Shown here piece by piece: positions 2,328-61,682 of a DNA stretch of 64,000 bases; positions within the stretch are counted from its first letter, which is position 1, and every line of letters begins with the position of its first letter. The stretch lies in contig JAPLVS010000054.1 of NCBI GenBank assembly GCA_026396995.1, positions 24,052-88,051 on the forward strand. The letters are read 5' to 3'. The position numbers were made by a program, and so were the translations under genes. Origin of the DNA: Candidatus Iainarchaeum sp. (GTDB taxonomy: Archaea > Iainarchaeota > Iainarchaeia > Iainarchaeales > DTGL01). The notes beneath the pieces are model-generated. The model was not told where the DNA came from. It saw only the letters and a program-made list of their open reading frames with translations, and did no database searches.

Positions 2328-4019
2328 ATGGAGCAGAGCACTTTCAAACTCGCAGTATATGTCATTGTGGCTTTGGTGCTGGCATACCTCTTTTTCTTCC
2401 AGTTTGCACCGCTATACCTTTGGAAGGAAGCGCCGCAGGAAGTAGTCAAAAAAAACCTGGACAAGGCAGAAACCCAGCTCGGGGTTTTTGCTTCACAAGA
2501 GGGAACATTCACGGCAGGCTACACCGTGAAAGCCGAGGGCTTCGAATCGCCTGACAGGGCCGTGGTGTTCAACTGCAACAAAGACCTGTTCTGCTGCGAG
2601 AAAGGGGAAGACTGCGAAAAAGCGGTACAATGGGACAACACCGGCATAAAGAGGTATTTCTCCTTCAGCCAGGAAAAAATTGTCCCAATCTCCACAAGGT
2701 GCAGGTACGAAAAAATATACATTTGCAAGGTTTATCTCGGCGAAGAGCCGGCGCAGGCAAAAATCGATAAACTCGAATTAGACACGCAGGAATTGGACCT
2801 GGCCGAATCAAACACCCTGAAGGCGGCCTTTGAAGTTGAAAACACAGGCAAACAGGACATGATTGCACTGGAAGTAAAAGCGAGGGTTTTCAAAAAACTG
2901 GAAAGCAGCGACGGCGCAGTGGAAAAAATCTTCAAAAAAGAATTCTCAAAAGAATTCCCGCTCGAAAGCGGGGCAAAACAGGAAGGCGAACTTGAAATAG
3001 AAATAACTGAAAACGGGGATTACGAAGTGGAAATAACCGCGGTCGAAAAAACAGACGAAACAAACTATGAAACAAAAACACTTGAAGCAAAAGCATTCGG
3101 GGAAGTTACAATAGAAGAATGCGTCGAACAGGAAATGCCAGCACAGGAAAAACAAAAATGCGATTATTTGCTGCCCTGCAAATGCAAAACACAGATTGAA
3201 TGCGAAGCATACTGGAGGGAAAAATTAGACATTCCCATAGGGGAAAATCTCGGAGTGCAGAGCCAGGACGAAAAAACACAGGAAATAGTATTGGAATACC
3301 TGACAGGGGCAATCCCGGCCTGGTGCGATGAAAAAACAATGGATTGCACAGGCGAATGCATTGCACCGGCAACCTGCACTGCATTGGCCTGCAGCGAAGA
3401 CAAGCAGAACTGCGTGATATGGCTGCCATGCGACTGCGGGGGAGAAACAGACATCTCGCAGTGCATGGCCTTATGGAGCCCGAAAATCGGGGCAAACGCA
3501 TTAAAACAAGACCCGACAAGCGGAAAGCTCTATGTTGAAGGGCAAAAGCAGACAGTGCTGCTGGATGAATTCTGTTACGTGTGCAATAGATTGGTGCAAA
3601 AAACAGCAACAAAATGCATCCTTCCGACAATCGGCTCATGCGGCAGCCAGCCGGCAACACCGCCTGAAATACCGCAGCCACAGCAGCCTGAGCCGGAAAA
3701 ACCAGCAGAATGCGTGGACGGGCAGCCACAGACAGCCGGATGCGTTATTTTAACCAAAAACAAGGAATGCGTTGCTGTCCTGCCCTGTGTTTGTATGAGC
3801 CTAGGGGACTGCACACAGGCATGGACCAAAAAGATAATCGCGGAATGGAGCCTGTCAAAAGCCCCAACCATCTCATCTTACACATACAATGGGAAAGAAC
3901 AACCGGCAATCATAGGAAAATATGAGGGGGAGTGCCCCAACTGCCTAACGTATGTTGGCGGGTGCAGTTTCTCAGAAGCAGGAATCATAGGCACAACTTT
4001 AGCCCAGCATTGCCAATAG
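2328..4019 (+). CDS. Hypothetical membrane-anchored, acidic, cysteine-rich surface protein
   Basis: N-terminal TM helix (VYVIVALVLAYLFFF), a D/E-rich body, and three LPC[KDV]C..C repeats (LPCKCKTQIEC, LPCDCGGETDISQC, LPCVCMSLGDC). No recognisable enzyme motif. Confidence 0.5.
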   Translation: MEQSTFKLAVYVIVALVLAYLFFFQFAPLYLWKEAPQEVVKKNLDKAETQLGVFASQEGTFTAGYTVKAEGFESPDRAVVFNCNKDLFCCEKGEDCEKAVQWDNTGIKRYFSFSQEKIVPISTRCRYEKIYICKVYLGEEPAQAKIDKLELDTQELDLAESNTLKAAFEVENTGKQDMIALEVKARVFKKLESSDGAVEKIFKKEFSKEFPLESGAKQEGELEIEITENGDYEVEITAVEKTDETNYETKTLEAKAFGEVTIEECVEQEMPAQEKQKCDYLLPCKCKTQIECEAYWREKLDIPIGENLGVQSQDEKTQEIVLEYLTGAIPAWCDEKTMDCTGECIAPATCTALACSEDKQNCVIWLPCDCGGETDISQCMALWSPKIGANALKQDPTSGKLYVEGQKQTVLLDEFCYVCNRLVQKTATKCILPTIGSCGSQPATPPEIPQPQQPEPEKPAECVDGQPQTAGCVILTKNKECVAVLPCVCMSLGDCTQAWTKKIIAEWSLSKAPTISSYTYNGKEQPAIIGKYEGECPNCLTYVGGCSFSEAGIIGTTLAQHCQ

Positions 4020-8155: not shown

Positions 8156-9073
8156 TTGCCTTTTTTCAACCAAAAAAACACCGAAAACATTAAATTTTCG
8201 GACTTCGTTATTAGATGCATGCCCCAAGACCAGCCTGAATTCGGCAAAACCGCCGCTTTGGCCAGATTAAGGGACGAGCTGGCGGTAGCAGGTTATTCAG
8301 CAAGGACCGCGGAGATGTACCTTGGGTATGTAGAAGACATGCTGGATTTCTCCAAAAAAGCCCCGGAAACCATTACACGGGATGATGTAATGGCCTTCCT
8401 TTCAAAAAAGAGTGCAGAAAACGTGAAGGGCGCAACAATGGCTCTTGTCTATGCCGCCCTGAAATTCTATTTCCATGCGCACCTCAAGCGCAAGATAATG
8501 GAGGACATCAAGCGCCCAAAAAAGGCAAAAAAGCTGCCGGCAGTCATGACCAAGGATGAAGTCAGAGCCATCATAAATGTTGCCTCGGGCACGCAGAACC
8601 GCCTAATCCTCGGGCTGCTTTATTCGAGCGGCCTGAGAGTCAGCGAAATAGTGAACCTCAAGATTGGGAGCCTGGACCTGAAGGAAAAAACAGCCGCAGT
8701 GCGGGGCGGAAAAGGCAACAAGGACCGCATGGTGATCCTTTCAGAATCCTGGGCAAAAGAATTCGGCGAGTTTGTTTCAAAAAGGAAGGCCCAAAGCGAG
8801 TTTGCCTTCTGCAAGAAAAACTGCAAACCGATAAGCGTTGACACGGTGCAGAGGCTTGTGAGGAAATGCAGGAAGCTGGCTGGAATTGAAAAAAACATAA
8901 CGCCCCACTCCTTCAGGCACAGCTTTGCAACACATCTCCTCGAGGCAGGCGAGAACATCAGGAAAATACAGGAACTGCTTGGCCATTCAAGCCTTTCCAC
9001 AACACAAATTTACACAATGATCTCAACAGAGGAATTGAAAAAAGTGAAAAGCCCGCTGGATTCGCTTAAATAG
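8156..9073 (+). CDS. xerA: Tyrosine recombinase (XerA/XerC-like integrase family)
   Basis: C-terminal catalytic signature ...R...HSFRHSFATHLLEAG...LGHSSLSTTQIYT (R, H-x-x-R, H, Y). The N-terminal SAM-like core-binding region is AGYSARTAEMYLGYVEDMLDF. The real start may be the internal MPQDQ. Confidence 0.7.
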   Translation: MPFFNQKNTENIKFSDFVIRCMPQDQPEFGKTAALARLRDELAVAGYSARTAEMYLGYVEDMLDFSKKAPETITRDDVMAFLSKKSAENVKGATMALVYAALKFYFHAHLKRKIMEDIKRPKKAKKLPAVMTKDEVRAIINVASGTQNRLILGLLYSSGLRVSEIVNLKIGSLDLKEKTAAVRGGKGNKDRMVILSESWAKEFGEFVSKRKAQSEFAFCKKNCKPISVDTVQRLVRKCRKLAGIEKNITPHSFRHSFATHLLEAGENIRKIQELLGHSSLSTTQIYTMISTEELKKVKSPLDSLK

Positions 9074-14982: not shown

Positions 14983-15723
14983 TCAGCTTTCCCCATATTC
15001 TTCTTCTATCCTGTGCACTACTATCCCGCGCGGGCCTATTTCGAGCGGGTGCAGGTCCTCTGAGTGCTTTGTTCCGCGCATTTTCCTTATGTGCAGGGTC
15101 CTGTTGCTTGTCATTCCAACACCCATGTAGTGCAATACTATTACGCCGTCGACAAGGTATTCTTCCACTCCGTATTTGCTGAAGCGGTTTTTTCCGTCAC
15201 CCAATTCCGAAATCAGTATTGATGTCACGCCGGCTTTTTCGAGGAGGTAGCCGAGCTTGAGCAGGGCTTTCCTTACCTCGTGCTCTGTTTTGAGGTTGTA
15301 GCCCAGGGATGGTATCGAGTCTATTACGACGCGTTTTGCCCCGTAGCGTTTTATTGAGGTGAGTATTTCTATCAGAAGCTTGTCCACGTCAAAGCCTGTG
15401 CTTGGCAGGGAGAATTCCTCGTCGCTCGGTATGCCTATCCTTGCTATGGCCCCGTCGATTATCTGGAGCATGTTTTCTTCCTCTAATTTCCTCAAATCCC
15501 AGCCGAAGTTCAGGCAGTCTTCCCTTATGAGGCTGGGCCTTTCGTCGAGTGTGACATATATTCCGGGCTCGCCGTATTTTTCGGCGCCTGCATAAACATA
15601 CTGGACCCCGAAAGTCGTTTTTCCTGTCCCGCAGCCTCCGCTTACAAGCATTGCCCTTCCTGACGGGAAGCCGCCTTCCAGCAATTCGTCCAACCCGATT
15701 ATTCCAGTGCGAACCCTTTCCAT
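14983..15723 (-). CDS. KaiC-like / RadA-paralog RecA-superfamily ATPase
   Basis: Single KaiC domain with TGIIGLDELLEGGFP, Walker A GGCGTGKTT, and Walker B VIDSI. Confidence 0.8.
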   Translation of the reverse strand: MERVRTGIIGLDELLEGGFPSGRAMLVSGGCGTGKTTFGVQYVYAGAEKYGEPGIYVTLDERPSLIREDCLNFGWDLRKLEEENMLQIIDGAIARIGIPSDEEFSLPSTGFDVDKLLIEILTSIKRYGAKRVVIDSIPSLGYNLKTEHEVRKALLKLGYLLEKAGVTSILISELGDGKNRFSKYGVEEYLVDGVIVLHYMGVGMTSNRTLHIRKMRGTKHSEDLHPLEIGPRGIVVHRIEEEYGES

Positions 15724-15789
15724 AAAACCACCAGTATGTTATAGGATTTATTTGTTAATATACTTTTTGCTCGGCCACAGTCAGCGCGT

Positions 15790-17652
15790 TCACCTGCCGG
15801 CTTCGATTACTGCCGGCACTGAAAGGATTGCCTGCCTTACGCGCTGGAATTGCTCTGCGTCTTTCAGCCTTATGTCGAAGGCGAATTTTATTGTGCCGCC
15901 TTTCTCGCTTTTTGTTTCGGTGCCACCTATTGTTGCGCCCTGCCTTTCGAGTTCGCTCAGCAGGTCTATCAGGATGCCGGCCCTTTCCACTGTCCTGACT
16001 GTAAGCTTTATCGAATGCGCTTTTTTTTCTTCGGCGCCCCATTCTATTCCGATTTTTTTCTTTTCAGGCAGCAATGCGAGGAGCGGGCAGCCAGCGGCAT
16101 GGATTGTTATTTTCCTTTTCGTGGTCCTGTACCCTGTTATTTTGTCGCCGGGCAGGGGATTGCAGCATTTTGCCATGATTGTTTTTTTGAATGAGGCTGT
16201 TGTCGGTGCGCCCGCCGCTTTGTGCGGCTTGTACTTCAGGCTTTTTATGCCGAGCGTTTTCCTTATTTTTGTTTTTGCCTTTTCGGTTTTCACGATGTTG
16301 AGCCAGGCAGGCTTGCACTGGGTTTTTTTGGACGTGTTTACTTCGACCACATCCCCGCTTTCAAGAATCCCGTGCAGAGGCGAGATTTTTTCATTCACGG
16401 TCACGCTTGCGCACTTGTTGCCTATGTCTGAATGTATTGCGTAGGCGAAATCGAGCGCCGTGGAGCCTTCAGGCAGGGTTATTATTTCTTTTTTCGGTGA
16501 GAGCACGAATATTTCGGGCTCGCCGAATGCGAGTTTCAGGGAACGCATTGTTTCCCCGGTTTTCTTTATTTTCCTCTGCCATTCCACGAACTGCTTTACC
16601 CAGGTCAGCTTCTGGTCGAAATCCCTGTCCCTTTCGATGTGCTTGTATCTCCAGTGCGCGGCAAGGCCTTCCTCTGCGTTCCTGTGCATTTCCATTGTGC
16701 GGGCCTGCACCTCGGCTTTCCTGCCGTGCCAGTCTATCACCGTGTGGATTGACTGGTAGTTGTTTTTCTTCGGGTTTGCGATGTAGTCGTCGTATTCCCC
16801 TATGGGCCTGAAATTCAGGTGGATAAGCCCGATGGCGCGGTAGCAGTCCTCCACAGTATTGCAGATTATCCTTGCCCCGTACAGGTCGCCCATTTCCCCG
16901 AATTTTTTGTTCTGCCCGAACATTTTTTTGTAAATGCTGTTGAAGTTTTTTGCCCTTCCGGAAACGCTGGCGCTGATTTTTTCCCTGCCCAGTATTGCGC
17001 CAATTTCCCTTTCCAGCTTTTTGACATTGCGCTCGCGCTGCTCCCTTTTTTCCCCGACAAGGGCTTTTATTTTTTCGTATTCTTTGGGCTTGAAATATTT
17101 TAGTGCGAGGTCCTGTATTTCCCATTCCATTTCATAAAGGCCAAGCTTGTGGGCTATAGGCGCATAAACGTCCTGCACCAGTTCTGCAAGCGATTCCCTT
17201 TTGTTCTCCGGCCTCTGCTGTATTTTCCTCATTTTGTCGAGTTGCGAGGCAATTTCCACGAAAAGGCTCCTGAAGTCCTTCGCTATGCCCATTATGACCT
17301 TTGCAAGCCGCTGGTTTTCGAGTTCCCCGTAATTCCTGTTTTTCACGCTTTTCAGCCTTGCAATGTCTTCCACGATGCCTGCTGTTTCCGTGTCAAGTGC
17401 TTTTTCCAGTTCGGTTTTCTTTTCGGGGCTGTCGAAAAGTATTTCGTGTGTAAGGGCGGCGGCGATTGTGCCGGCGTCAAGGCCGAGGCTTGCGAGGATG
17501 AAGGCGGTGTTTGCCTGGTGCGCTTCCTGTTCCTTGTTTTTGCTGTGCTGGGCTGAAAACCTGAAGGCTTTTTCCACCAATTCAAAATCGCTTTTGTTTA
17601 TGTGCGCGCAAGCTTCCTTCAATTCCGCGAAAGAGCGGTTCCGGTATTGCAT
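15790..17652 (-). CDS. Long RelA/SpoT homolog (RSH) with an intact (p)ppGpp synthetase domain, degenerate HD hydrolase motifs, and TGS, zinc-finger and ACT domains
   Basis: Synthetase motifs GRAKNFNSIYKKM, DLYGARII, DYIANPKKNNYQSIHT and EVQARTMEMH...AAHWRYK are present. The hydrolase region reads LTHEILFDS in place of LHDVVEDT and EIASQLDKMRK in place of KLADRLHNMRT. A TGS domain follows (LPEGSTALDFAYAIHSDIG), then CCNPLPGDK...HAAGCP and a C-terminal ACT. Confidence 0.8.
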   Translation of the reverse strand: MQYRNRSFAELKEACAHINKSDFELVEKAFRFSAQHSKNKEQEAHQANTAFILASLGLDAGTIAAALTHEILFDSPEKKTELEKALDTETAGIVEDIARLKSVKNRNYGELENQRLAKVIMGIAKDFRSLFVEIASQLDKMRKIQQRPENKRESLAELVQDVYAPIAHKLGLYEMEWEIQDLALKYFKPKEYEKIKALVGEKREQRERNVKKLEREIGAILGREKISASVSGRAKNFNSIYKKMFGQNKKFGEMGDLYGARIICNTVEDCYRAIGLIHLNFRPIGEYDDYIANPKKNNYQSIHTVIDWHGRKAEVQARTMEMHRNAEEGLAAHWRYKHIERDRDFDQKLTWVKQFVEWQRKIKKTGETMRSLKLAFGEPEIFVLSPKKEIITLPEGSTALDFAYAIHSDIGNKCASVTVNEKISPLHGILESGDVVEVNTSKKTQCKPAWLNIVKTEKAKTKIRKTLGIKSLKYKPHKAAGAPTTASFKKTIMAKCCNPLPGDKITGYRTTKRKITIHAAGCPLLALLPEKKKIGIEWGAEEKKAHSIKLTVRTVERAGILIDLLSELERQGATIGGTETKSEKGGTIKFAFDIRLKDAEQFQRVRQAILSVPAVIEAGR

Positions 17653-17762
17653 AATTGTATTTCTGCTGGAAGTTGAATAAATATATGCTTTGCATTCCAA
17701 GGCGATGGCTTTAAATTGTTTTTCGGTATTTATTTTTGAAGTCTGTTTTTGGAGGCGCTCGC

Positions 17763-18437
17763 ATGAAAACCCCTGTTCTTTTCATCAATTTCAAATGCTA
17801 TATGGAGGCAACAGGCAAAAATGCGGTTGCGCTTGCAAAAAAGGCAGAGGCGGTTGCCGGAAAATCCAAGGCGCAGATTGCCCTGGCGGTGCAGGCAGTT
17901 GATATAAGGCTTGTTTCCGAATCTGTTTCCCTCCCTGTTTTTGCCCAGCACGTTGACCCGGTGGAATACGGCTCGCGCACAGGGCATGTCCTGCCTGAGG
18001 CGGTAAAGGCTGCTGGTGCCAAAGGCACTGTTTTGAACCATGCGGAGAACAAGAGGGACAATGCTTTTCTGGAAAAAGCCATTGCACGCGCGCATGAAGC
18101 TGGCCTCACAGTGATGGTTTGTGCTGAGAGCATTGCAAGGGCCGAACAGGTTGCGGCTTTTTCGGAAAAGCCGGAGTTCATTGCAATAGAGCCTCCTGAG
18201 CTTATCGGCGGTGACATTTCTGTTTCGACTGCAAAGCCTGAACTTATAACCGATACAGTAAAAGCGGTTGAAGCGGTTGCGGGCATTCCGGTCATAACAG
18301 GGGCTGGGATAAAGAATGCCGATGATGTCAGGATTGCCCTCAAGTTGGGCACAAAAGGGGTCTTTGTCGCCTCAGGCATAATCAAGGCGCAGGACCAGGA
18401 GAAAGCGATTTTGGATTTGGTTAAGGGATTCAGTTAG
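17763..18437 (+). CDS. tpiA: Triosephosphate isomerase, archaeal short type
   Basis: INFKCY, AQHVD, VLNHAENKRD and C-terminal FVASGIIKAQD fit the roughly 225-aa archaeal TIM family. Confidence 0.75.
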   Translation: MKTPVLFINFKCYMEATGKNAVALAKKAEAVAGKSKAQIALAVQAVDIRLVSESVSLPVFAQHVDPVEYGSRTGHVLPEAVKAAGAKGTVLNHAENKRDNAFLEKAIARAHEAGLTVMVCAESIARAEQVAAFSEKPEFIAIEPPELIGGDISVSTAKPELITDTVKAVEAVAGIPVITGAGIKNADDVRIALKLGTKGVFVASGIIKAQDQEKAILDLVKGFS

Positions 18438-18472
18438 TTTTTTGTTGTTTAATTTTTGGGCAGGTGTTTTGG

Positions 18473-19627
18473 ATGGAACGTACCAGTGTTGAAGAAGTGA
18501 TGGAAAAGAATTTTTTGAAAATAGGCGCAGATGAGCGCGTTTCAAAGCTTTTGGGGCTGCTGAATTCCGCAAAAAAATACCATGCGGTGGTGTTCGATTC
18601 TTCGGATACCTATTTGGGCATAACTTCCACCAGCGGGCTTTTGCGCAGGCAGGCCGACCTTTCCCAGATGAAGGTCAGGAGCGTTACCGATGAAAACAGG
18701 CCGATGCTTTCAAGGGAAATGTCTTTGATGAAAGCTGCTGAGCTCATGTATGTTTCTGACAGCCGCGTGTTGCCTGTCGTGGAAAACGGCAATGTTTACG
18801 GCATTGTTTCAGCCGACGCCCTTATCAGGGAGGCAGCGGAGCGCTCCCCGATTGCTTCTTCCAGAGCCAGGGATATAGCGTCATCTGCGCTCGTGGTCCT
18901 TAAGCAGGACGAACCGCTCGGAAAGGCTGTTTCACTTATGAAGGAGCGCAACATCAAAAGGATTCTTGTTGTTGACAAAGCCGGAAAAATTTCAGGAACT
19001 CTTTCTTTGCGCAACCTTATGGAAAAATACCTAGCCCAGTCCACAGGCGGAAGGATTGCCTCTCTAGGGGATGCGCACGGCCATTCAACCGAAAGGGACA
19101 GCGCCCTGACAATCCCTGTTTCGAGCGAAATGTCCACTTTGTTCAAGACAATAGAGCCTGACAAAAAAATAGGGCCTTTGCTTTCCGACATTGAAAACGG
19201 CTATGCGATTGTCCTTGCCGAGAAAGGAAAGCCTGTTGGCATTATCACAAGAAGGGATTTGCTTGAAGCAATCGTGAAGACAGGGGCAGTCGAAAGAAAT
19301 ATTCAAACCGCCAACATGCCTGCACTGGATGAAATTGACATGGCAAGGGTCAACAGCACGATTGAGACCGCTTACGACCGCGTGAAAAAGTCCCTGAACA
19401 CCACCTATTTCCTTCTGGTGCATTTCAAGCAGTACAAGCAGGCTGGTGGGAAAACCAAGCATTCAATCCACGTCCACGCTTCAGGCCCGGGAATGAACTT
19501 TAAGGCTGAATCCTATTCCTGGAATGTGCTAACCGCCTTGCAGGATGCCCTGGGCGAACTGGAGCGCGAGATAAGGAAGGGAATAGGCAAAAAAACCAGG
19601 GGCAGCAAAAAAGCGAGGGCAAAATAA
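18473..19627 (+). CDS. Protein with four CBS domains (two Bateman modules) and a C-terminal HPF/RaiA-like domain
   Basis: Four CBS repeats with typical G-h-h-s/t..D motifs. The last ~90 aa (HSIHVHASGPGMNFKAESYSWNVLTALQDALGELEREIRK) resemble the ribosome hibernation factor / YfiA fold signature. Confidence 0.6.
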   Translation: MERTSVEEVMEKNFLKIGADERVSKLLGLLNSAKKYHAVVFDSSDTYLGITSTSGLLRRQADLSQMKVRSVTDENRPMLSREMSLMKAAELMYVSDSRVLPVVENGNVYGIVSADALIREAAERSPIASSRARDIASSALVVLKQDEPLGKAVSLMKERNIKRILVVDKAGKISGTLSLRNLMEKYLAQSTGGRIASLGDAHGHSTERDSALTIPVSSEMSTLFKTIEPDKKIGPLLSDIENGYAIVLAEKGKPVGIITRRDLLEAIVKTGAVERNIQTANMPALDEIDMARVNSTIETAYDRVKKSLNTTYFLLVHFKQYKQAGGKTKHSIHVHASGPGMNFKAESYSWNVLTALQDALGELEREIRKGIGKKTRGSKKARAK

Positions 19628-19639
19628 AAATTTCAAAAA

Positions 19640-19918
19640 AAAGCGTGGGCACGCCCTGAAATCGATTTGGCCTGAAAGGCTGGAGTGACCCACTGCATTC
19701 CTCGCTTCCGTTTACCTCAAAGCATTTCGCTTAAAGGCCACCGTTGCTTTCTTCCGAACCTGGCGGGTTCACCCTTAGGCAAAACCTAAGAGGACAGAAG
19801 TTCCTTGTAGTGCAATGGCTCCGGCTTTCCAGGAAAAACCTTTCCCAAGGCTTCGGTCCCGGCGTGAAGCGGATTTCCGGCTACAGGGAACCGCTGCCTC
19901 CCCAACCTAGCCCACAAA
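19640..19918 (-). ncRNA. ffs: Signal recognition particle RNA (7S/SRP RNA)
   Basis: On the minus strand, GGUGAACCCGCCAGGUUCGGAAGAAAGCAACGGUGGCC matches SRP RNA helix 8 (GGAA tetraloop, AGCA). CACUCCAGCCU pairs with the 5' CCUGGAAAGCCGGAG to form helix 5. The terminal helix is GUGGGC/GCCCAC. A hairpin plus T8 run lies at the 3' end. Confidence 0.65.
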
Positions 19919-27742: not shown

Positions 27743-27783
27743 AATCAACCAATGTTATACTTTTTTATAATTTTGGTTGATTC
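27743..27783. promoter_or_regulatory. Perfect 10-bp inverted repeat AATCAACCAA-N21-TTGGTTGATT bracketing a TATA-like TTTTTTATAA, immediately upstream of the AbiEii-like gene
   Basis: Seen directly. It overlaps the predicted promoter and start region of 27792-28436. Confidence 0.35.
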
Positions 27784-27791
27784 TATTTAAT

Positions 27792-28436
27792 ATGAAGTTG
27801 CCGTTGTTCAACAGGCTGAAAAGCCAGTTGCACCGCGATATGGCCCTGTTGCAGGACGAGGTTGCGGATATCGTGTATTCGATTGAGCCAAAGGCGGTAT
27901 TGCATGGCGGCACCGCGGTCTGGCGCTGTTATTCGAGCAACCGCTTTTCAGAAGACCTCGATTTTTACATCGGTTCCGGCAAGGGCTTCAGGGAAAAATT
28001 TTTTTCCGCGGTTGAATCGCGCGGCCTCAGGGTTGAAAAATTCAAGCAGACTTCAAGCACGGTTTTTTCCAAAATTTCCAGCGGCCGGAATGAAGTTCGT
28101 TTTGAGGCCGCATTGAGGCTGCCGAAAAAGACAGCCGCTGCCGGATATGAAAAGGCCGATGGGACATTCATGAGCATTTTCACCCTGTCGCCCGAGGGCC
28201 TCCTGCTGGAAAAAATGTCAGCGTACCAAAACAGGCGCCTTGCCCGCGACCTTTATGACATTGTTTCACTGCTTTCTTTTGTGAAAGACGAAAAAGTAAT
28301 TGAAAGCGAAGCGCTGGCGTTCATCGAATCCGCCAAAGCGCCTGTTGATGAAAAAGCCCTGAAAGCCCTGGTGTTCTCAGGCGCAGTGCCTTCATTTGAA
28401 CAGGCAATGGATGCAATAAGGAGGCGGTTCAAATGA
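27792..28436 (+). CDS. AbiEii/AbiGii-family nucleotidyltransferase (type IV TA toxin-like)
   Basis: LHGGTAVWRCYSSNRFSEDLDFYIG matches the AbiEii NTase motif (GGTAL...R.SEDIDF). Confidence 0.55.
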   Translation: MKLPLFNRLKSQLHRDMALLQDEVADIVYSIEPKAVLHGGTAVWRCYSSNRFSEDLDFYIGSGKGFREKFFSAVESRGLRVEKFKQTSSTVFSKISSGRNEVRFEAALRLPKKTAAAGYEKADGTFMSIFTLSPEGLLLEKMSAYQNRRLARDLYDIVSLLSFVKDEKVIESEALAFIESAKAPVDEKALKALVFSGAVPSFEQAMDAIRRRFK

Positions 28437-29044
28437 AATATGCGTCGATTGTGAGGGAGCATTTTTCAAAGCAGGCTGTTTTCAGCATACGCGACCTTTC
28501 AATTTTTCTTTCAACCAAGGGCATTTCCAAAGGCTATGTGCGCCTGTTTCTCCACAACCTTTTGAAAAAAGGCGAAATCGTGCGCATTTCCAAAGGCATT
28601 TATTCTTTTGAAAAAGACCCGGTGCTTTGGGGCTTTGCTTTTTCGCCTTTTTATTATGGCCTGCAGCAGGCACTTTCCCTGCATGGCCTATGGGAGCAGG
28701 AAAGCATTCCAGTAATAATAACGCCCAGAAAAGTGAGAACCGGCCTGAGGGAAATCTGCGGCTCGAACATCTTGGTCAGGCGCATCGGCAGGAAAATGTT
28801 TTTCGGCTTTGAAATGCTGCCCTATTACGGCCAGTTCATCCCGGTTTCCTGCCCTGAAAAAACCCTTTTGGATTTTTTTTATTTCAGGGAACCTTTGCCT
28901 GAAAGCGCGCTGAAAGAGCTCTTGAAAAAGGCCGACGGCAAAAAATTGAACGCTTTCCTTAAAAAATACCCGAAGCGCTTCAGGCATTCGTTCAGGAAAA
29001 AATTCCCTGTCTTCTTTGAAAAAGCCGGAAAGGAAAAGAAATAG
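28433..29044 (+). CDS. AbiEi-like antitoxin / wHTH transcriptional regulator
   Basis: N-terminal wHTH (FSIRDLSIFLSTKGISKGYVRLFLHNLLKKGEIVRISKGIYSF) is typical of AbiEi. Overlaps the upstream gene by 4 nt (ATGA). Confidence 0.5.
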   Translation: MKYASIVREHFSKQAVFSIRDLSIFLSTKGISKGYVRLFLHNLLKKGEIVRISKGIYSFEKDPVLWGFAFSPFYYGLQQALSLHGLWEQESIPVIITPRKVRTGLREICGSNILVRRIGRKMFFGFEMLPYYGQFIPVSCPEKTLLDFFYFREPLPESALKELLKKADGKKLNAFLKKYPKRFRHSFRKKFPVFFEKAGKEKK

Positions 29045-34811: not shown

Positions 34812-35660
34812 TCAACGCGGCTTTCTGCCCTGAAGTTGCCATTTTTTCAGGGTACGCCTTTGCTGCGACCTGCGCATGGCACTCCTTGAAGGCTGCATCG
34901 GCTTCGGCCCGGCTGCAGGCTTTTTAGGCCGCGGATGCTCGAACTCCTCAAGGGAGCGCCACAATAAATCCAAATCCTTGTTTGAAAGATAGCCCTGTTC
35001 GTTTTTCATTTCTGCCAAAAGCCTTGGCCTCAAGTCGGCGCCAGGGCGCTTTCTTTCCAGGCTGGGTTTTATTTCCGTAACAATTTTTGCCGAGAGTGCT
35101 TTTTGTTTTTTGATGTTTTCTTGTATTTGTTTTGCCAGTGTTTCTTTTTTTGACCCTTCAGGCTGCATTTTTCTTAATTCTCTCAATTCAAAAAGTTGCC
35201 AGTAAAGTTTCTCCAGCTCAACAAAATTTGCGCCGAAAATGTCCCGCATCGCTTTAACTTTTCTGTCCCAAGGAAGGTCTTCGTAACCGATGTTTGTTTC
35301 TTTTTTCCAAAGGTGGCCATAAACGGATTTCAGCATTTCAAGCGACCTTTCCATTTTGAAGGCCGGAATTGCATTGGTAACGAAGTTACGGTGGCTTGGC
35401 TTTGAGACAAGGCCGAGATTCGAGAAGTCAAGGAGCAGGTTTGCTGGAACGGTCGAACCGAAATGATATGAATTCGGAAAAAGGGAAGTGGCTGCTTTTA
35501 CCATGTCCGATTTTACACCAAATCGGGTGGCAAGTGTCCTGATTATAATTCCAGAAATTTCGTGTGCTTTGCTTGGATTGAAGTGCCCCCCCCTCTTTGC
35601 TTGGGCGATGCATTCTTCGATTATTGCATCAATCATTGCCTGTGTGACATTTTTTGCCAT
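34812..35660 (-). CDS. Hypothetical protein
   Basis: 282-aa ORF with a basic C-terminal tail. No motif recognised. Confidence 0.4.
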   Translation of the reverse strand: MAKNVTQAMIDAIIEECIAQAKRGGHFNPSKAHEISGIIIRTLATRFGVKSDMVKAATSLFPNSYHFGSTVPANLLLDFSNLGLVSKPSHRNFVTNAIPAFKMERSLEMLKSVYGHLWKKETNIGYEDLPWDRKVKAMRDIFGANFVELEKLYWQLFELRELRKMQPEGSKKETLAKQIQENIKKQKALSAKIVTEIKPSLERKRPGADLRPRLLAEMKNEQGYLSNKDLDLLWRSLEEFEHPRPKKPAAGPKPMQPSRSAMRRSQQRRTLKKWQLQGRKPR

Positions 35661-41987: not shown

Positions 41988-42719
41988 TCAATCGCTTCTT
42001 TTTCGCCTGAACAAGCGCTTACGTTTTTTTCCGACAAGTTCTTCTACTACAAGCTTTTGCACTTGCCTTGAAACCTCTTCTCTCGGAAGCGTCGTGTCGA
42101 TTTCAAAAACACGCACGCCTTTTGCCCTGAGTTCGGCAAGCCTTTTTTCGTTTGCCTTCTCCATTCTTTCCAGGTTTTCAAGTTTTTCGTGCTTGAAAAC
42201 AACTCCGCCCCACTCGTCCACGACATTCCTTTCCGCAATCCTTTTCACTGAGACCTCTGGCGGTACCCTAAGGTGTATTACGGCGTCAGGCAAAGGGCCG
42301 GCTACAGCCCTGGCAGTGCTTTTTGTAACAAACCTCGGGATTTTTCCAGCGTATACTGCGGTAATTGCCGTCGCGTCGGTCACCGGATCCCTTTGGAAAA
42401 GGCGCACATCGCTTTTCCTTGTGGCAACCCTTGCAGCGCGGAATGCGGACCCTGCAATCGCACTGCCGGCCAGGATTTTTCTGTCGGAGCCTTTTTCGGC
42501 GCCTCTTTTTATGAGGCGCTTGCCATAGCCTCCAACCCTTCCGGCAACCCCCTTGAACCCGACAAAGTGCGGGGCGTCAATTATTGCAACATTAAGGCCC
42601 TTTTCCCTGAGTGCCTGCTGCAGCTTCCCGGCAACTGTTGTCTTGCCGCAGCCGTCGATTCCGACAATGGCGATATCTGTCGGGCGCTTTCTTTTAAAAG
42701 GGCGTTTCAAAGGCGGCAT
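41988..42719 (-). CDS. Thymidylate-kinase-like P-loop NMP kinase paralog (short form)
   Basis: N-terminus MPPLKRPFKRKRPTDIAIVGIDGCGKTT has a Tmk-type P-loop. A DRY-like QRDPVTDATAI...AVYAG follows. It is the last gene of a four-gene minus-strand operon. Confidence 0.45.
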   Translation of the reverse strand: MPPLKRPFKRKRPTDIAIVGIDGCGKTTVAGKLQQALREKGLNVAIIDAPHFVGFKGVAGRVGGYGKRLIKRGAEKGSDRKILAGSAIAGSAFRAARVATRKSDVRLFQRDPVTDATAITAVYAGKIPRFVTKSTARAVAGPLPDAVIHLRVPPEVSVKRIAERNVVDEWGGVVFKHEKLENLERMEKANEKRLAELRAKGVRVFEIDTTLPREEVSRQVQKLVVEELVGKKRKRLFRRKRSD

Positions 42720-44032
42720 TATTTTTTCCTTCTTCCCAATTTTGCCTTCACTTTTTTCTCAATTGAAATTTTCCATTCAAGGTAGCGCTTGGCCCCCCTG
42801 GTTATTGTTTCGACCTTCGAGGACACATTGTATTTGCCGTAAAGCCTTCCGAGTTTCTTGTATGCGAAATGGTCTGCCAGAATGCCCATCATTTCCGGTT
42901 CCCTTACAATCGAGGAAACAATATAAGCGGTTCTCCCAGCAAAGGGAATTGCTCCGATGAGCATCGCTTCCCCGCTGTGCAATCTCTTGATTTTTTCATA
43001 TTCTTCCGCAGAAATATTTCCGGCCAAGCGCCTTGCCATCCCAATTCCCCTCATAGCGGCCGTATAGGCCGGCCTTCCCACGGTTCCGACGCCGGCCATT
43101 ATTACCGGCACCCCGCTTATTGCCAGATGCACTCCGAAGTGCGTCAAAAAATCCGAAAAATAGCCTTTCCCTATTTTTTCCCTCAATTCCGCAGCTTTCT
43201 CCTGACCAATTCTTCCTTCTTTTTCCCAGCGCCAGATTCCATCAACCATAAATTGCATGGCCTGCTCTTTCTTTCGCTCCAGATATTTTTTCCTGCCTTT
43301 TTCCATTAGCCTTTTTTCTTTCAATATCCTTTGCACCTGCCCTAAAACTGCCTCCTTTGGAAGAGATGCATCTATTTCCAGAATCCACACGCCTTTTGAC
43401 GCAAGCTCCGCCTTGCGTTTCTGATAAGCAGAATTCAATCCCTCAAGATTTTCAGGCTTTTCATGCTGGAATTCAATTGCGTGCAAGCCACTGCCACCAG
43501 CTCTTTTTTTTGCAAGCCGTTCGGCAGCAGTTGCAGGCTCTACCGAAAGAAATACTGCAACATCCGGCAAAGGCCCCCCTGCAATCCGCCCGGCTGCCTT
43601 GGAAAACGCCAGGATTATCCTTCCGCCGTACTGCCTTGCCAAGACAGGCGCTTCAATTGCCGGATGCCTTTCAATAATCCTGACAGTGCTTTTTCTCGAT
43701 TTGGCCCTTGCCATCCTTGTCGGAAGCGAGGCAATCGCTCCGCCAGCTGCAGCAAGCCTCTTTGATTGTTTTTCCGCTCCTTTTGCACTAATACTCCTTC
43801 CAAACCCACTCACTCTTCCAATCATTCCGCCATAATCCTGGAAATGCGGAACATCCAGGACCGCGGTTTTGGTGCCCTGCGCATTCAACCGGCTTTGCAA
43901 TCCCCTTGCAAGTGTTGTTTTCCCCGCGCCATCAATCCCCACAATCGCAATATCAGTGGGCCTTTTCCGCCTGAACAATCTTTTTGGGGGCATAAATATG
44001 ATGCTGTTTGTTGAGTTTAAATTACTTTTCAA
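42719..44032 (-). CDS. Thymidylate-kinase-like P-loop kinase paralog fused to a ~200-aa C-terminal domain of unknown function
   Basis: The N-terminal 230 aa are paralogous to 41988-42719 (PPKRLFRRKRPTDIAIVGIDGAGKTT, ERHPAIEAPVLARQYGG). The C-terminal domain is uncharacterised and moderately hydrophobic. TAATG overlap with the downstream gene. Confidence 0.45.
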   Translation of the reverse strand: MKSNLNSTNSIIFMPPKRLFRRKRPTDIAIVGIDGAGKTTLARGLQSRLNAQGTKTAVLDVPHFQDYGGMIGRVSGFGRSISAKGAEKQSKRLAAAGGAIASLPTRMARAKSRKSTVRIIERHPAIEAPVLARQYGGRIILAFSKAAGRIAGGPLPDVAVFLSVEPATAAERLAKKRAGGSGLHAIEFQHEKPENLEGLNSAYQKRKAELASKGVWILEIDASLPKEAVLGQVQRILKEKRLMEKGRKKYLERKKEQAMQFMVDGIWRWEKEGRIGQEKAAELREKIGKGYFSDFLTHFGVHLAISGVPVIMAGVGTVGRPAYTAAMRGIGMARRLAGNISAEEYEKIKRLHSGEAMLIGAIPFAGRTAYIVSSIVREPEMMGILADHFAYKKLGRLYGKYNVSSKVETITRGAKRYLEWKISIEKKVKAKLGRRKK

Positions 44033-50736: not shown

Positions 50737-51027
50737 AACGCTTGTTTTCCGCGTAAAACCGCACTTGTTGCAGGTTATTTTGAGAATGCTTCCTTCAATC
50801 CTTATTTTTGAATTCCTGCCTTCCTTCAAATAGGATTTGCATTTCTTGCAGTAGTTTTTTTTCAATTCCCATGGAATGCTTTCATTGCACCGTTTCCCTA
50901 TCTTGAGGGCCAGTTGCACATAGCAGTCGCTCCTTTCCGGGTGTTCCTTGAATTCTTTTCCGGCCAGTTCGAATAGCCTGCAAATCCTTTCCCTTGCGAT
51001 CTGCCCGATCACGTCTTTTTTTCCCAT
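50710..51027 (-). CDS. rnp4: RNase P protein component 4 (Rpp21/Rpr2)
   Basis: ERICRLFELAG...YVQLALKIGKRCNESIP then zinc ribbon CKKCKSYL...CNKCG. Confidence 0.7.
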   Translation of the reverse strand: MGKKDVIGQIARERICRLFELAGKEFKEHPERSDCYVQLALKIGKRCNESIPWELKKNYCKKCKSYLKEGRNSKIRIEGSILKITCNKCGFTRKTSVSGEKNQQE

Positions 51028-51530
51028 AATCCTTCCTTCATATAACGATAAAACATTTCTTTAAACCAGGGCGTGAACGCCTCGCGCTCCTTGAGCATGC
51101 CCCGTATTTCCTTTATTGAAAAAAACCTTCCGCCAAAGCTCTCTTCTATGTTCTCTGAAATCTTCCCGTCATAAGTGCATTTCCATAATTCCGAGAATTC
51201 GCAGTTTTTTTCAGGAAAACAGTTCTTTGCCTCGGCCACTTTCTCCACTTTTGCCCCAGTAATCCCCAACTCTTCTCTCAATCCCCTTAGTGCAGCCTGC
51301 TCGAAGCTCTCTCCAGGCTTCAGGTGCTCGCCCATATCCTCCCAGTGTTCCGGATAAAATTCCTTTTCCTGCGCCCTCTTCTTCAGGAAAATTCCCCCAC
51401 TGGAATTGAAAACCCAAACGTGCGCGCCCTTGTGCCACTCGCCATTATTATGTAGAACACTCCTCGGCGCCCTTCCTTTGAAAGCGCCGTAGCCTGAAAA
51501 AAATTCCAGCTGCTCTTCCCCTTGTTCCAT
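51009..51530 (-). CDS. NUDIX hydrolase
   Basis: Nudix box GEHLKPGESFEQAALRGLREELGI (GX5EX7REUXEEXGU). Confidence 0.75.
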   Translation of the reverse strand: MEQGEEQLEFFSGYGAFKGRAPRSVLHNNGEWHKGAHVWVFNSSGGIFLKKRAQEKEFYPEHWEDMGEHLKPGESFEQAALRGLREELGITGAKVEKVAEAKNCFPEKNCEFSELWKCTYDGKISENIEESFGGRFFSIKEIRGMLKEREAFTPWFKEMFYRYMKEGLWEKKT

Positions 51531-51539
51531 ATTTCTCAT

Positions 51540-52004
51540 TCACAGAATTTTCCTGAGGTATTCCATGCCAGATTTTTTGAACCCGATTTTTTGGTAAAAT
51601 TTGAATGCCTTTGATTTGCGGTGCGAGAGCAATGTCAGCGCCTTGAACCCCTTTTTCTTCAGATCCTTTTCCAGCAATGCTAGCGCCTTTCGGCCTATGC
51701 CTTTTCCCTGCAGGCCTTCGGCCACAGCGAATTCTTCCACGAAAAACCCGTTTCCTTCGGGCTCGGAGTAGAATTCCGAGCCAAAGATTATCCCTGTCCT
51801 TTTCCCGCCCATTTCTATTACATAAATCGCGCTTTTCGGGTGCCTTGCCCACAAGCGCACCGCCCGCATCGCTTTTGCAGGAGTCCATTTTTCATTATAG
51901 GGCGCCTTAGAGAACTCTTTCCTGAGCAGTTCAGCGCAAAAGCCCAAATCGCTTTCCTTTGCCGGCCGAAGGCCGACCTTGGATTGCTTAAAATCAGCTT
52001 TCAT
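51540..52004 (-). CDS. GNAT-family N-acetyltransferase
   Basis: Motif A LQGKGIGRKALALLE. 154 aa. Confidence 0.8.
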   Translation of the reverse strand: MKADFKQSKVGLRPAKESDLGFCAELLRKEFSKAPYNEKWTPAKAMRAVRLWARHPKSAIYVIEMGGKRTGIIFGSEFYSEPEGNGFFVEEFAVAEGLQGKGIGRKALALLEKDLKKKGFKALTLLSHRKSKAFKFYQKIGFKKSGMEYLRKIL

Positions 52005-52118: not shown

Positions 52119-52916
52119 TTAATGGTTTTCTTTGCGCTGTTTTGCCCTGCCGGCCCTTATGTCTTTTGGCTGTATTTCACCGCCGGCAAGGGCTTCAGGG
52201 CTGTAGAATTTTTCAGGCAATGCCATTTTTGGGCCGTCCGGCATGAACCTGGCGGATTTCGGGCCTTCAGTTCGAATCCAGCAATGCTCTGCCTTGTCGA
52301 ACCTGTACCTTTCCCTGAAAATGTTTATCGGAATTCCCGAGCGCCAGTATTTCCTTGCTTTTTCAGCCACGTGCCCGGATGCCTTGATTTTTTCCGGGCT
52401 TTCGCTTGGCGGGAACCTGTACAATGAACCAACGTGGATGTGGTCGAAAACATACGTTTTTGTCGCATCAGCCCTTGCCCTGACAGTCAGCCCAAGCTGA
52501 TGCGGGCTCTTCGGGAGGACAAGGCTTTTTTCAAGCCTGAAAGAAGCCCAGTCAGGGTGAAAGTAAGGCGATGCCTGCCTTGAAATTCCAGTGGCTAGAA
52601 TATGCTCCGGCCTGTTGTTGTCAAAGGCGATGTCAATCGCTTCGGCATGAGGGTGTTCCTGGTATTGTTTGCGCCGCATTTCCGCAGCCGAAAAGCCGTT
52701 TCTTGCAATCGCGATTCCGCTTTCGGGTTTTGGGTCGCTTGTTCCGTGAATCAAAAAAGCAGTGTCCCTTCTCCTTACAATCTCTTCGGCTTCAGCAACT
52801 GAAAGCCCGGTTTCCTGTGCAATCCGCTGGATTTCTTCAGGCGAATGCGGTTCCTTTTTCTTCCGCATTTTCACAGCTTTCCTTATCTGCCCAAAGCGGT
52901 TTTTCGGCACAGGCAT
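52119..52916 (-). CDS. Hypothetical protein, paralog family member 1 (tandem with 52973-53683)
   Basis: Shares RIRQIRKAV, SPEEI..IA..TGLS.AEA.EI, HI.A.GISR, ATRAR, YWR with its neighbour. Function not recognised. Confidence 0.45.
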   Translation of the reverse strand: MPVPKNRFGQIRKAVKMRKKKEPHSPEEIQRIAQETGLSVAEAEEIVRRRDTAFLIHGTSDPKPESGIAIARNGFSAAEMRRKQYQEHPHAEAIDIAFDNNRPEHILATGISRQASPYFHPDWASFRLEKSLVLPKSPHQLGLTVRARADATKTYVFDHIHVGSLYRFPPSESPEKIKASGHVAEKARKYWRSGIPINIFRERYRFDKAEHCWIRTEGPKSARFMPDGPKMALPEKFYSPEALAGGEIQPKDIRAGRAKQRKENH

Positions 52917-52972
52917 ATGTTATTCTTTCCCCCAAGTGATTATATTCTTTCCAGGCTTGTTTTATGTTTTTC

Positions 52973-53683
52973 CTAATCGTCCCTGGCCAGCCTGTAAGTT
53001 GTTTTTGAAGCCCTTGTTTTCCCTGGCTCTTCGCTTGTAAGGATTTCAGGCATCAGGAATATTAAGGGCAGGCCTTTTTTCATATCGGCCTTGTCTTTCA
53101 GCCACCATGCCCCTTCCTTCGGGTAATATTTTTTCAGGAATTCATCCAGCCTTATTGCCTTTCTCCAATAGTCTACTGCAACCTTTTCGATTTCCGCACC
53201 GCACTTTTGCAGCCTCAAAGCCAGCTCGACATCATGCATATCCGCCACAATTGCTTTCTTCGTGTTTATTCTTGCCCTTGTCGCCCTAAGGTCGCCCTTC
53301 GGGTGCGATTCATACCGGTTGATTGCCCACAGGTTGCCGGGCCAGAAAAAATACGCGTTTTTCCTTGAAATGCCCAATGCCCTTATATGATCCGGAATCA
53401 CTTCATCAAAGGCTTTGTTTACTGGCCCAAGGCGCCTTTCCTCATAACGGTTGCCGCGCTTAAAGCCTTCCTCCTCGATTTGCCCAGCACGTTCTTTAAA
53501 TCCAAAGCGGAGCGCAAAAACCTTGTCTTTCCTTTCGATTATTTCCCTTGCTTCAGCTTCGCTCAACCCTGTTTTCCCGGCGATCCTGCCAGCCATCTCT
53601 TCCGGTGCGCCCTGTGTGTTTTCACGGATTTCCACAGCTCTCCTTATTTGGCGGATTCGGGTCGCCGGAATCCTTGCAGGCAT
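52973..53683 (-). CDS. Hypothetical protein, paralog family member 2
   Basis: See 52119-52916. N-terminus MPARIPATRIRQIRRAVEIRE. Confidence 0.45.
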   Translation of the reverse strand: MPARIPATRIRQIRRAVEIRENTQGAPEEMAGRIAGKTGLSEAEAREIIERKDKVFALRFGFKERAGQIEEEGFKRGNRYEERRLGPVNKAFDEVIPDHIRALGISRKNAYFFWPGNLWAINRYESHPKGDLRATRARINTKKAIVADMHDVELALRLQKCGAEIEKVAVDYWRKAIRLDEFLKKYYPKEGAWWLKDKADMKKGLPLIFLMPEILTSEEPGKTRASKTTYRLARDD

Positions 53684-61509: not shown

Positions 61510-61598
61510 ATATCAAAGGACCAAAGTAATGTATAAATTGGTCCTTTGATAGCTATCAAAAGACAGTTAGAAAACCAGTAATGCTGTCTTTTGATATT
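61510..61598 (-). repeat. Double-hairpin intergenic repeat element, copy D (inverted orientation)
   Basis: Its reverse complement reads ATATCAAAAGACA-N19-CTGTCTTTTGATAGCTATCAAAGGACCAA-N13-TTGGTCCTTTGATA. It sits in the divergent promoter region between pth2 and 61683-63476. Confidence 0.75.
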
Positions 61599-61682
61599 AA
61601 TCGATTAATCGCCGAGGCTGGTTGGGAAGGGAGCGGAAAAGGCTGGAATTGCGGTTGGGTTTTGGTTCGGGCGGTTTTGGGA

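Follow-up and report, generated by a model that had tools for sequence, protein, structure and literature searches.

A 64,000-nucleotide stretch of a Candidatus Iainarchaeum sp. contig (JAPLVS010000054.1; the whole stretch is called the window) carries on its minus strand, at 15790..17652, a gene for a long RelA/SpoT homologue (RSH). The encoded protein is probably a monofunctional, RelA-like (p)ppGpp synthetase and a member of a compact RSH family that was acquired from bacteria and is inherited vertically in the Iainarchaeota at a fixed site. The residue alignments make an active (p)ppGpp synthetase without hydrolase activity very probable. A first-pass annotation of the same DNA had proposed the RelA-like configuration of a pseudo-hydrolase next to a predicted active synthetase; the alignments bear this out, and a RelA-type EXDD motif reinforces it.

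The open reading frame comprises 620 codons and a stop codon and begins with an ATG at 17652. An alternative TTG at 17700 would add 16 residues upstream; the ATG is taken as the start because full-length homologues span ~616-621 residues and M1 is nearly invariant in the alignment. A TATA-like element just upstream is a possible archaeal promoter for the gene, in which case the leader would be very short. The G+C content near the gene (0.49-0.50) is the same as that of the window. An identical protein, P0001, is recorded as 'HD domain-containing protein [Candidatus Diapherotrites archaeon]', a metagenome-assembled genome (MAG) protein on a 106-kb contig. A scan of genome contigs with the query protein returned one archaeal relative, a copy in a Candidatus Iainarchaeum MAG (L003) that is 91% identical to the query, and four bacterial Rel loci. 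The gene and its parts are as follows.

15790..17652, minus strand: coding sequence of the compact long RSH, defined by the open reading frame and by Pfam and NCBIfam domains, 100% identical to P0001.
17676..17687, minus strand: TATA-like element CATATATTTATT, found by reading the sequence, with its centre ~30 nt 5' of the RSH ATG.
17137..17583, minus strand: pseudo-hydrolase HD_4 domain, residues 24-172 (PF13328, 85.3 bits, cut-off 27.2).
16639..16959, minus strand: (p)ppGpp synthetase (SYNTH) domain, residues 232-338 (PF04607, 118 bits).
16339..16512, minus strand: TGS domain with H407, residues 381-438 (PF02824, 56 bits).
16183..16332, minus strand: alpha-helical (AH) domain remnant and disordered linker, residues 441-490 (from the AlphaFold2 model, the linker length and the absence of PF19296).
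16048..16182, minus strand: zinc finger/ribosome-intersubunit (RIS) domain with C496, C497, H518 and C522, residues 491-535 (invariant ligands; PF28438 RelA_RIS).
15793..16023, minus strand: C-terminal ACT (RRM-like) domain, residues 544-620 (PF13291 ACT_4, 37 bits).

The synthetase motifs are intact, as the first-pass annotation had stated, and every motif that it quoted lies at the expected residue: GRAKNFNSIYKKM at 232, DLYGARII at 256, DYIANPKKNNYQSIHT from 289, EVQARTMEMH at 314 and AAHWRYK at 331, with LTHEILFDS at 67 and EIASQLDKMRK at 133 in the N-terminal region. R233, K235, K243, D256, R261, D289, K295, Y299, S301, H303, E314 and Q316 do not vary among 60 family members and bacterial Rel. 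The G-loop reads GRAKNFNSIYKK, and within the acceptor-site motif DYIANPKxNxYQSIHT the residues K295, N297, Y299, S301 and H303 do not vary. A feature that the first reading missed is the EYDD at residues 286-289. This is the EXDD motif of the RelA subgroup (EFDD in E. coli RelA), and it replaces the RXKD (RFKD, RVKD) of bifunctional Rel and SpoT, which the query does not have. According to Sajish et al., the charge reversal between EXDD and RXKD separates monofunctional from bifunctional enzymes and moves the acceptor preference from GTP to GDP (PMC2666561; PMC3153485); EXDD-type enzymes yield some pGpp (PMC2666561).

The hydrolase signature, also described beforehand as degenerate, is confirmed to be so, with HD changed to HE, ED to FD and DRLHN to SQLDK. 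HMMER alignments to the Rel proteins of M. smegmatis (8fr8) and B. subtilis (6yxa) place LTHEILFDS under LLHDTVEDT and IASQLDKMR under VADRLHNMR. Misalignment of the HD motifs is ruled out, as the pairwise HMMER comparisons and a 70-sequence MAFFT alignment give one register. The pseudo-HD domain keeps H45 and H69, and the remaining signature residues are substituted by E70, F73, S136, D139 and K140. In the numbering of RelSeq, we take the two histidines to be H53 and H77 and the substitutions to be D78 to E70, E81 to F73, D144 to S136, H147 to D139 and N148 to K140. On this alignment the hydrolase residues lost are one metal ligand (D144) and the catalytic E81 and N148, the change of D78 to glutamate being conservative. 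The HDxxED/DxxxN signature of bifunctional Rel/SpoT ([HS]) is absent, with the equivalents of D78, E81, D144 and N148 all substituted, and the degenerate HDxxED of RelA (the [hS] subgroup in beta/gamma-proteobacteria) is present. The lack of hydrolysis in RelA has been attributed to loss of the HDXXED motif (PMC2666561).

The description of the protein as a full-length long RSH in an archaeal genome holds in that HD_4, RelA_SpoT, TGS, zinc-finger/RIS and ACT domains are all present on a contig with archaeal markers. The AlphaFold2 model has an overall predicted local distance difference test score (pLDDT) of 85.7 and a predicted template modelling score (pTM) of 0.81. In the model the HD_4 domain is a helical bundle (pLDDT ~84-97) and the ACT domain has a beta-alpha-beta-beta-alpha-beta fold. 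Structurally the model is closest to ribosome-bound RelA (5iqr, E 3e-37), B. subtilis Rel (6yxa) and SpoT (7qpr). The HD fold, the SYNTH domain with its residues, TGS and ACT domains and the zinc finger/RIS place the protein among the long RSHs as defined by Atkinson et al. (2011), and its five-domain architecture is not that of a small alarmone synthetase (SAS) or toxSAS, to which it shows weak matches (YjbM 39 bits; RelP/RelQ E ~1e-6).

The regulatory half differs in one respect from the full set implied by the first-pass annotation. TGS, zinc finger and ACT are there, and ~90 residues of the AH domain are missing. The distance from the end of TGS to the zinc-finger CC is 56 residues in the query and 52-68 in compact RSHs, against 126-152 in bacterial long RSHs, a set that includes E. 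coli RelA and SpoT. The AH region of the model consists of two short helices only (448-452 and 457-467), followed by a low-confidence or disordered segment (473-487). PF19296 (RelA_AH_RIS) is absent from the query-identical protein and from all ~620-residue matches and present in the bacterial-type matches of 708-738 residues, while PF28438 (RelA_RIS) is recorded for the query-identical protein and for homologues, compact and bacterial-type alike. The zinc finger, first given as CC...C..C, reads CC-x20-H-x3-C; its ligands C496, C497, H518 and C522 are invariant in 60 sequences, as is H407 of the TGS domain, which is 38-52% identical to bacterial TGS domains.

Comparison with the L003 copy gives a ratio of nonsynonymous to synonymous substitution rates (dN/dS) of 0.11 for the whole protein, with 0.15 for the pseudo-HD domain, 0.11 for SYNTH, 0.09 for TGS and, lowest in the protein, 0.05 for the zinc-finger domain (ZFD) and ACT together (residues 491-620). 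All RSH domains are under purifying selection, and the values therefore indicate a working gene with a working regulatory half.

The query belongs to a large group of similar proteins. The first ~50 database matches are compact RSHs of 605-637 residues with 38-100% identity, several labelled Diapherotrites, Woesearchaeota, Micrarchaeota or 'archaeon'; bacterial Rel matches (708-738 residues) begin at ~40% identity and cover only 72% of the query. When 1.84 billion cluster representatives were searched exhaustively, 17,439 RSH-like matches came back, with ~55 of the best 150 compact; dozens of 50%-identity clusters share the compact type of the query. Judged by alignment, and by gene context, which is the only source of taxonomy for most members, this is a compact family of ~605-640 residues on archaeal (DPANN) contigs whose members are all without ~90 AH residues. 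Linkers of 83-104 residues occur in other proteins of obscure origin with an intact hydrolase site, and shortening of the AH region is therefore not strictly unique to the compact family.

Loss of the hydrolase site is common in the family but not universal. Among 97 compact sequences sampled, 79 have a degenerate site and 18 an intact one. The intact members carry LLHDxxEDT and KLADRLHNMR, most of them with an xFKD motif as well. The 79 degenerate members retain the equivalent of H77 in 61 cases, D78 in 19, E81 in eight, D144 in 16 and N148 in 17, with variation by subclade. The lysine of RXKD (xxKD) is present in 12/18 intact and 7/79 degenerate members (Fisher p = 8e-7, not corrected for phylogeny). 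Seven proteins (P0137, P0048, P0197, P0216, P0218, P0244 and P0250) combine intact HDxxED/DxxHN motifs with an EXDD-like xFDD; the coupling of hydrolase loss to EXDD is therefore a tendency and not a rule, and these RSHs could be intermediates.

Long RSHs had been assumed at first to be rare in archaea and usually acquired horizontally from bacteria. The first assumption fails for this lineage: Li et al. (2021, mSystems, PMC8407392) report RelA/SpoT from 69% of Diapherotrites, 42% of Woesearchaeota, 21% of Pacearchaeota and 19% of Nanoarchaeota genomes, and the compact clusters number in the dozens. The second agrees with the same source, which predicts that DPANN RelA/SpoT was acquired from Bacteria. 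The acquisition is not recent, since the position of the gene is conserved in relatives down to 38% identity.

The RelA-like state appears to have arisen inside the archaeal family. In neighbour-joining (NJ) trees the intact compact members form a separate group (79/100 bootstraps) and the EYDD subclade of the query is recovered in 100/100. A 161-sequence NJ tree places 58/60 compact proteins within one 62-member clade, and E. coli RelA lies outside it, paired with a 742-residue RelA-like protein. The HD domain of the query is 19% identical to that of E. coli RelA and 26-29% identical to those of SpoT/Rel, and the protein scores 337 bits against NF008124 (RelA), where orthologues of proteobacterial RelA would pass a cut-off of 728. 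Descent from proteobacterial RelA is rejected on the identities and the NJ placement, with modest support. The RelA-like state looks convergent, because the intact members group apart and the query stands at a distance from proteobacterial RelA; it would have evolved in parallel to that enzyme.

The gene sits in an archaeal setting that is repeated in relatives. Its neighbours relevant here are the following.

14983..15723, minus strand: single-domain KaiC-like ATPase of 246 residues (PF06745, 256 bits), 66 bp 3' of the RSH gene.
17763..18437, plus strand: archaeal-type triosephosphate isomerase (TIM; NF003302, 273 bits), divergent from the RSH gene.
19643..19917, minus strand: archaeal signal recognition particle (SRP) RNA (Rfam RF01857, 138.8 bits, gathering score 96.5), 2 kb from the RSH gene.

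The window also encodes the archaeal markers RadA, RPA, TFE-alpha, DTD2, aTrm56, GGGP synthase/PcrB, S19e, aIF6, SRP54 and FtsY, and the contig is archaeal beyond reasonable doubt. The triad of divergent TIM, RSH and KaiC-like genes (14983-18437 in the window) occurs in seven Iainarchaeota-type loci: the window, L008 and L012-L016. The RSHs of the six further loci are degenerate compact proteins that are 63%, 47%, 41%, 40%, 39% and 38% identical to the query. TIM adjoins RSH in 6/7 loci, a CorA gene being inserted between the two in L014, and the KaiC-like gene adjoins RSH in 7/7, even where the flanks are rearranged in more distant loci. The KaiC-like protein, whose closest solved relative is Pyrococcus PH0186 (2zts), is conserved at 61-90% identity across these loci, compared with 38-63% for RSH. 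In each RSH-KaiC spacer there is a separate TATA-like box of the AAAGTATATTAA type and a GGTG (Shine-Dalgarno-like) element, so the KaiC-like gene probably has its own promoter; an RSH-KaiC-like operon is weakened as an explanation by these promoter-like elements in every spacer. The spacer in L016 is 193 bp long and has T-runs. The adjacency is notable and, read from gene order, is no proof of a functional link. Four compact loci with an intact hydrolase have other neighbours, with no KaiC or TIM, and two of them (L017, L018) carry archaeal marker domains.

Two further kinds of neighbour were recorded. A multi-CBS protein of 387 residues lies beside TIM at 18464-19627 (plus strand), and similar genes stand in L008 (7977-9134) and L014 (7085-8218). 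Its match to CbpB/DarB, the c-di-AMP receptor, is generic (58 bits, cut-off 125), and the position may be a coincidence; in B. subtilis the CBS protein DarB is a partner and activator of Rel (PDB 8acu). Purine-nucleotide genes occur 3-9 kb from RSH in L013 (14556-20600), L015 (14659-21830) and L018 (6689-11193), loci of three separate lineages, and are not found in the window. They encode GMP synthase, PurF, PurD, adenylosuccinate synthetase, IMP dehydrogenase, PurO and a phosphoribosyltransferase; several such enzymes are classical (p)ppGpp targets in bacteria.

The proposed mechanism starts with transfer of a bacterial gene to an ancestor of several DPANN archaeal lineages, after which the gene would have been inherited vertically within the Iainarchaeota (Diapherotrites) at the TIM-RSH-KaiC-like position. 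The enzyme would move pyrophosphate from ATP to GDP or GTP; if it behaves like other EXDD enzymes, GDP would be the preferred acceptor and ppGpp the main product, possibly with some pGpp. It would be unable to hydrolyse its own product, and the pseudo-HD domain, as in RelA, would be retained to support the synthetase structurally or allosterically. The TGS-zinc finger-ACT module would control activity and would most likely dock on the archaeal ribosome, where the 3' end of uncharged tRNA would be read via the invariant TGS histidine H407, and the short flexible linker (~55 residues) would stand in for the AH spacer. We take H407 to correspond to the histidine with which RelA/Rel recognises the 3' CCA of uncharged tRNA. 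The ribosomal contacts of RelA (A-site finger H38, uS19 and the sarcin-ricin loop region) are universal. Sensing of uncharged tRNA on the ribosome would be the most economical role of the module, because H407 and the CCHC ligands are invariant and ZFD-ACT is strongly constrained. Ribosome- or tRNA-dependent activation of the protein nevertheless stands at slightly below an even chance. The wider proposal, that DPANN archaea including the Iainarchaeota run a genuine (p)ppGpp stringent response through a compact, ribosome-docked sensor of uncharged A-site tRNA, is tentative and somewhat doubtful; in that case ppGpp would act on universally conserved targets such as translational GTPases and purine-nucleotide enzymes.

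How such an alarmone would be degraded was a question raised by the first-pass annotation. Removal could fall to an unrelated enzyme (e.g. a Nudix protein), to an RSH-type hydrolase elsewhere in the genome or to dilution. An hmmsearch with the RSH-family profile found no second HD_4 or SYNTH domain among the 679 open reading frames of at least 50 residues in the 64 kb window. Pfam scans of ~55 window genes gave a sole NUDIX protein, of 176 residues, at 51009-51539 (minus strand), followed by a GNAT acetyltransferase at 51540-52004. Among solved structures, this NUDIX protein is closest to IPP isomerases and YfcD and does not resemble a known ppGpp hydrolase; it is unrelated to the NUDIX protein near RSH in L016. 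It is the only, and a generic, non-RSH candidate for an alarmone hydrolase in the window.

Several observations weigh against the main reading. In bacteria, having a synthetase and no hydrolase is toxic (PMC3153485). The trees are distance-based NJ trees with a limited set of outgroups; only 75/100 bootstraps recover the compact clade as monophyletic, the exact 62-member clade is recovered in 0/50 replicates, and in a small NJ tree E. coli RelA grouped with degenerate members in 22/100 bootstraps, which is possibly an attraction between convergent sequences. The shared AH deletion is a stronger argument than the trees for a single origin of the compact family. The score against NCBIfam TIGR00691 (spoT_relA), 493.4 bits, narrowly misses the cut-off of 499.2, a result consistent with the AH deletion. 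The altered hydrolase motifs HE..F(D/E) and ELASQLDK(I/M)R, at residues 67-75 and 133-142, are kept from 100% down to ~45% identity (P0001-P0021), which suggests that the pseudo-hydrolase pocket is under a constraint of its own, e.g. allosteric nucleotide binding; its function could be remodelled instead of merely dead. Finally, the loss of ~90 AH residues alters the spacing between TGS and zinc finger, which in bacteria fits the 70S ribosome with A-site tRNA, and binding to the archaeal ribosome is a prediction, though a plausible one.

This last point bears on an alternative in which the C-terminal module acts off the ribosome, through auto-inhibition, oligomerisation, ligand sensing (e.g. 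amino acids on ACT) or a partner such as the KaiC-like or CBS protein. The signal to which the enzyme responds would in that case not be uncharged tRNA. The alternative is unlikely, yet it accounts for several facts: the AH spacer is shortened in all compact members, the RSH-KaiC-like adjacency survives rearrangement of the flanks in 7/7 loci, and the multi-CBS gene stands beside TIM in the window, L008 and L014, which recalls the partnership of DarB with Rel. Against it stand the invariance of the TGS histidine and the CCHC ligands and the constraint on ZFD-ACT, which is stronger than anywhere else in the protein; the bacterial TGS histidine and zinc finger contact tRNA and rRNA in RelA-ribosome complexes (5iqr/5kpv). 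As for partners, co-transcription with the KaiC-like gene is doubtful given the separate elements in each spacer and the long L016 spacer with its T-runs, neither KaiC nor TIM stands beside the compact RSHs whose hydrolase site is intact, and the CBS match to CbpB/DarB falls well below its cut-off.

A second alternative concerns the N-terminal domain, which might be a remodelled hydrolase that still breaks down (p)ppGpp or a related nucleotide, with H45, H69, E70 and D74/D139 forming a new metal site; in that case a single bifunctional enzyme would do, and no partner hydrolase would be required. Both histidines, two of the four metal ligands, are kept, the change of D78 to glutamate is conservative, the substituted motifs are themselves conserved to ~45% identity, and the domain is under purifying selection. 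Conservation of this kind is also seen in E. coli RelA, whose pseudo-hydrolase domain is conserved though non-catalytic. The chemistry of the substitutions argues in the other direction, with E81 replaced by a hydrophobic phenylalanine, the metal ligand D144 by serine and N148 by lysine, and loss of HDXXED is the reason given for the missing hydrolysis of RelA (PMC2666561). Moreover, the substitutions vary among the 79 degenerate members, which fits a relaxed catalytic constraint and not a new shared site, and the linked switch from RXKD to EXDD fits monofunctional enzymes. A remodelled hydrolase is, on balance, improbable.

It is more improbable still that the enzyme makes a different or additional product, whether (p)ppApp, a pyrophosphorylated tRNA 3' end (as CapRel/FaRel2 do) or mainly pGpp, in which case its signalling chemistry would not be that of the classical stringent response. 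Some pGpp is expected of EXDD enzymes (PMC2666561), the product is a predicted one, the archaeal host has no documented (p)ppGpp targets, and CapRel is among the weak structural matches (E ~4e-5). The acceptor motif and G-loop, however, follow the same pattern as in Rel, RelA and SpoT, and in both sequence and fold the closest matches are, by very large margins, long RSHs that produce (p)ppGpp, without exception. The idea of pppApp raised in the first-pass annotation finds no support here, the motif around Y299 being invariant and the same as in bona fide (p)ppGpp synthetases. To our knowledge, the (p)ppApp-making and tRNA-modifying enzymes are all single-domain SAS toxins and none is a long RSH with TGS-ZFD-ACT.

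That the gene is contamination from bacteria, sits on a mis-binned or chimeric contig, or is left over and decaying after a recent transfer is extremely unlikely: although the closest characterised relatives are all bacterial and the source is a MAG, archaeal genes and the SRP RNA lie 100 bp to 2 kb away on both sides, independent contigs from different samples, the longest of 637 kb, repeat the gene order, the G+C content is that of the surroundings, and the frame is intact with a dN/dS of 0.11.

Other genes of the window were noted in passing. An AbiEii toxin and AbiEi-like antitoxin pair (type IV/abortive infection) lies amid housekeeping genes at 27777-29044 (plus strand) and is absent from L008. 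A tyrosine recombinase (Phage_integrase with a SAM-like N-terminal domain) at 8156-9073 (plus strand), with counterparts in L008 (19104-19949) and L012 (17621-18460), adjoins an M16 peptidase and is syntenic in relatives; it is more likely a chromosomal Xer-type enzyme than a sign of a mobile element. Two adjacent genes at 41988-44032 (minus strand), of 243 and 437 residues, both match thymidylate kinase/P-loop kinase profiles, and the 437-residue protein has a ~200-residue extension without a match. Open reading frames of 236-631 residues without a Pfam match (E<=0.001) lie at 2328-4019 (plus), 61581-63476 (plus), 34812-35660 (minus), 52119-53683 (minus) and 54471-55496 (plus); in L020 the 631-residue frame is followed by another unannotated gene of 539 residues.

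The presence of RelA/SpoT in these archaea is already known, and the gene is common in the phylum and not rare. The RelA/SpoT of Li et al. (2021) is evidently the same gene family as the query; in the accessible part of that study (PMC8407392) it takes up one sentence and a supplementary tree, in which the dead hydrolase, EXDD, AH loss and locus are not mentioned. An earlier RSH survey reported long RSHs as absent from archaea (Atkinson et al. 2011, PMC3153485), and according to reviews of second messengers in archaea, (p)ppGpp has yet to be found in these organisms and is unlikely to play an important role in them (PMC8646023, PMC10249747). A literature search that covered few subscription journals returned no paper on the pseudo-hydrolase, EXDD or AH-less features. 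Three features appear undescribed: a compact long RSH that lacks most of its AH domain, a convergent pseudo-hydrolase together with EXDD, and a fixed TIM-RSH-KaiC-like locus.

Contrary to that survey and those reviews, an archaeal group keeps, at a fixed site and with strong purifying selection, what is predicted to be a full regulatory-type alarmone synthetase, and the question of an archaeal stringent response becomes directly testable with one recombinant protein. If the proposal is true, this would be the first case in the domain Archaea of an alarmone-mediated stringent response, and an independent repeat of the specialisation from Rel to RelA, with hydrolase loss coupled to the charge switch from RXKD to EXDD. 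A long RSH can, it appears, dispense with most of the AH domain, which bears on how the C-terminal domains place the enzyme on the ribosome.

Among known systems, the bifunctional Rel proteins of Firmicutes and Actinobacteria, such as those of B. subtilis (6yxa) and M. smegmatis (8fr8), share the order of HD, SYNTH, TGS, zinc finger/RIS and ACT domains with the query. They are also its best solved sequence relatives (8fr8, E 9e-105; 6yxa, E 2e-94), together with E. coli RelA (5iqr), and the query is 37-40% identical to Clostridia Rel. The synthetase residues, the TGS histidine and the CCHC residues follow the same pattern as in Rel. Unlike Rel, the query has degenerate hydrolase motifs, EYDD in place of RXKD, 56 instead of ~150 residues between TGS and the zinc-finger CC, and an archaeal host. 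The combination of a pseudo-hydrolase with an EXDD synthetase is that of E. coli RelA ([hS]; 5iqr, 5kpv), which comes first among the structural matches. RelA, with its full AH domain, is not an orthologue of the query, which keeps both of the HD histidines that RelA has lost. Closest in architecture are the compact RSHs with an intact hydrolase (P0038, P0044, P0051, P0064, P0080 and others), proteins of 628-637 residues that share the AH deletion, with a 62-66-residue linker, and are 36-39% identical to the query. They occur on Woesearchaeota-type and other archaeal contigs. Unlike the query, they keep LLHDxxEDT, KLADRLHNMR and mostly xFKD, have no TIM or KaiC-like neighbours and are predicted to be bifunctional.

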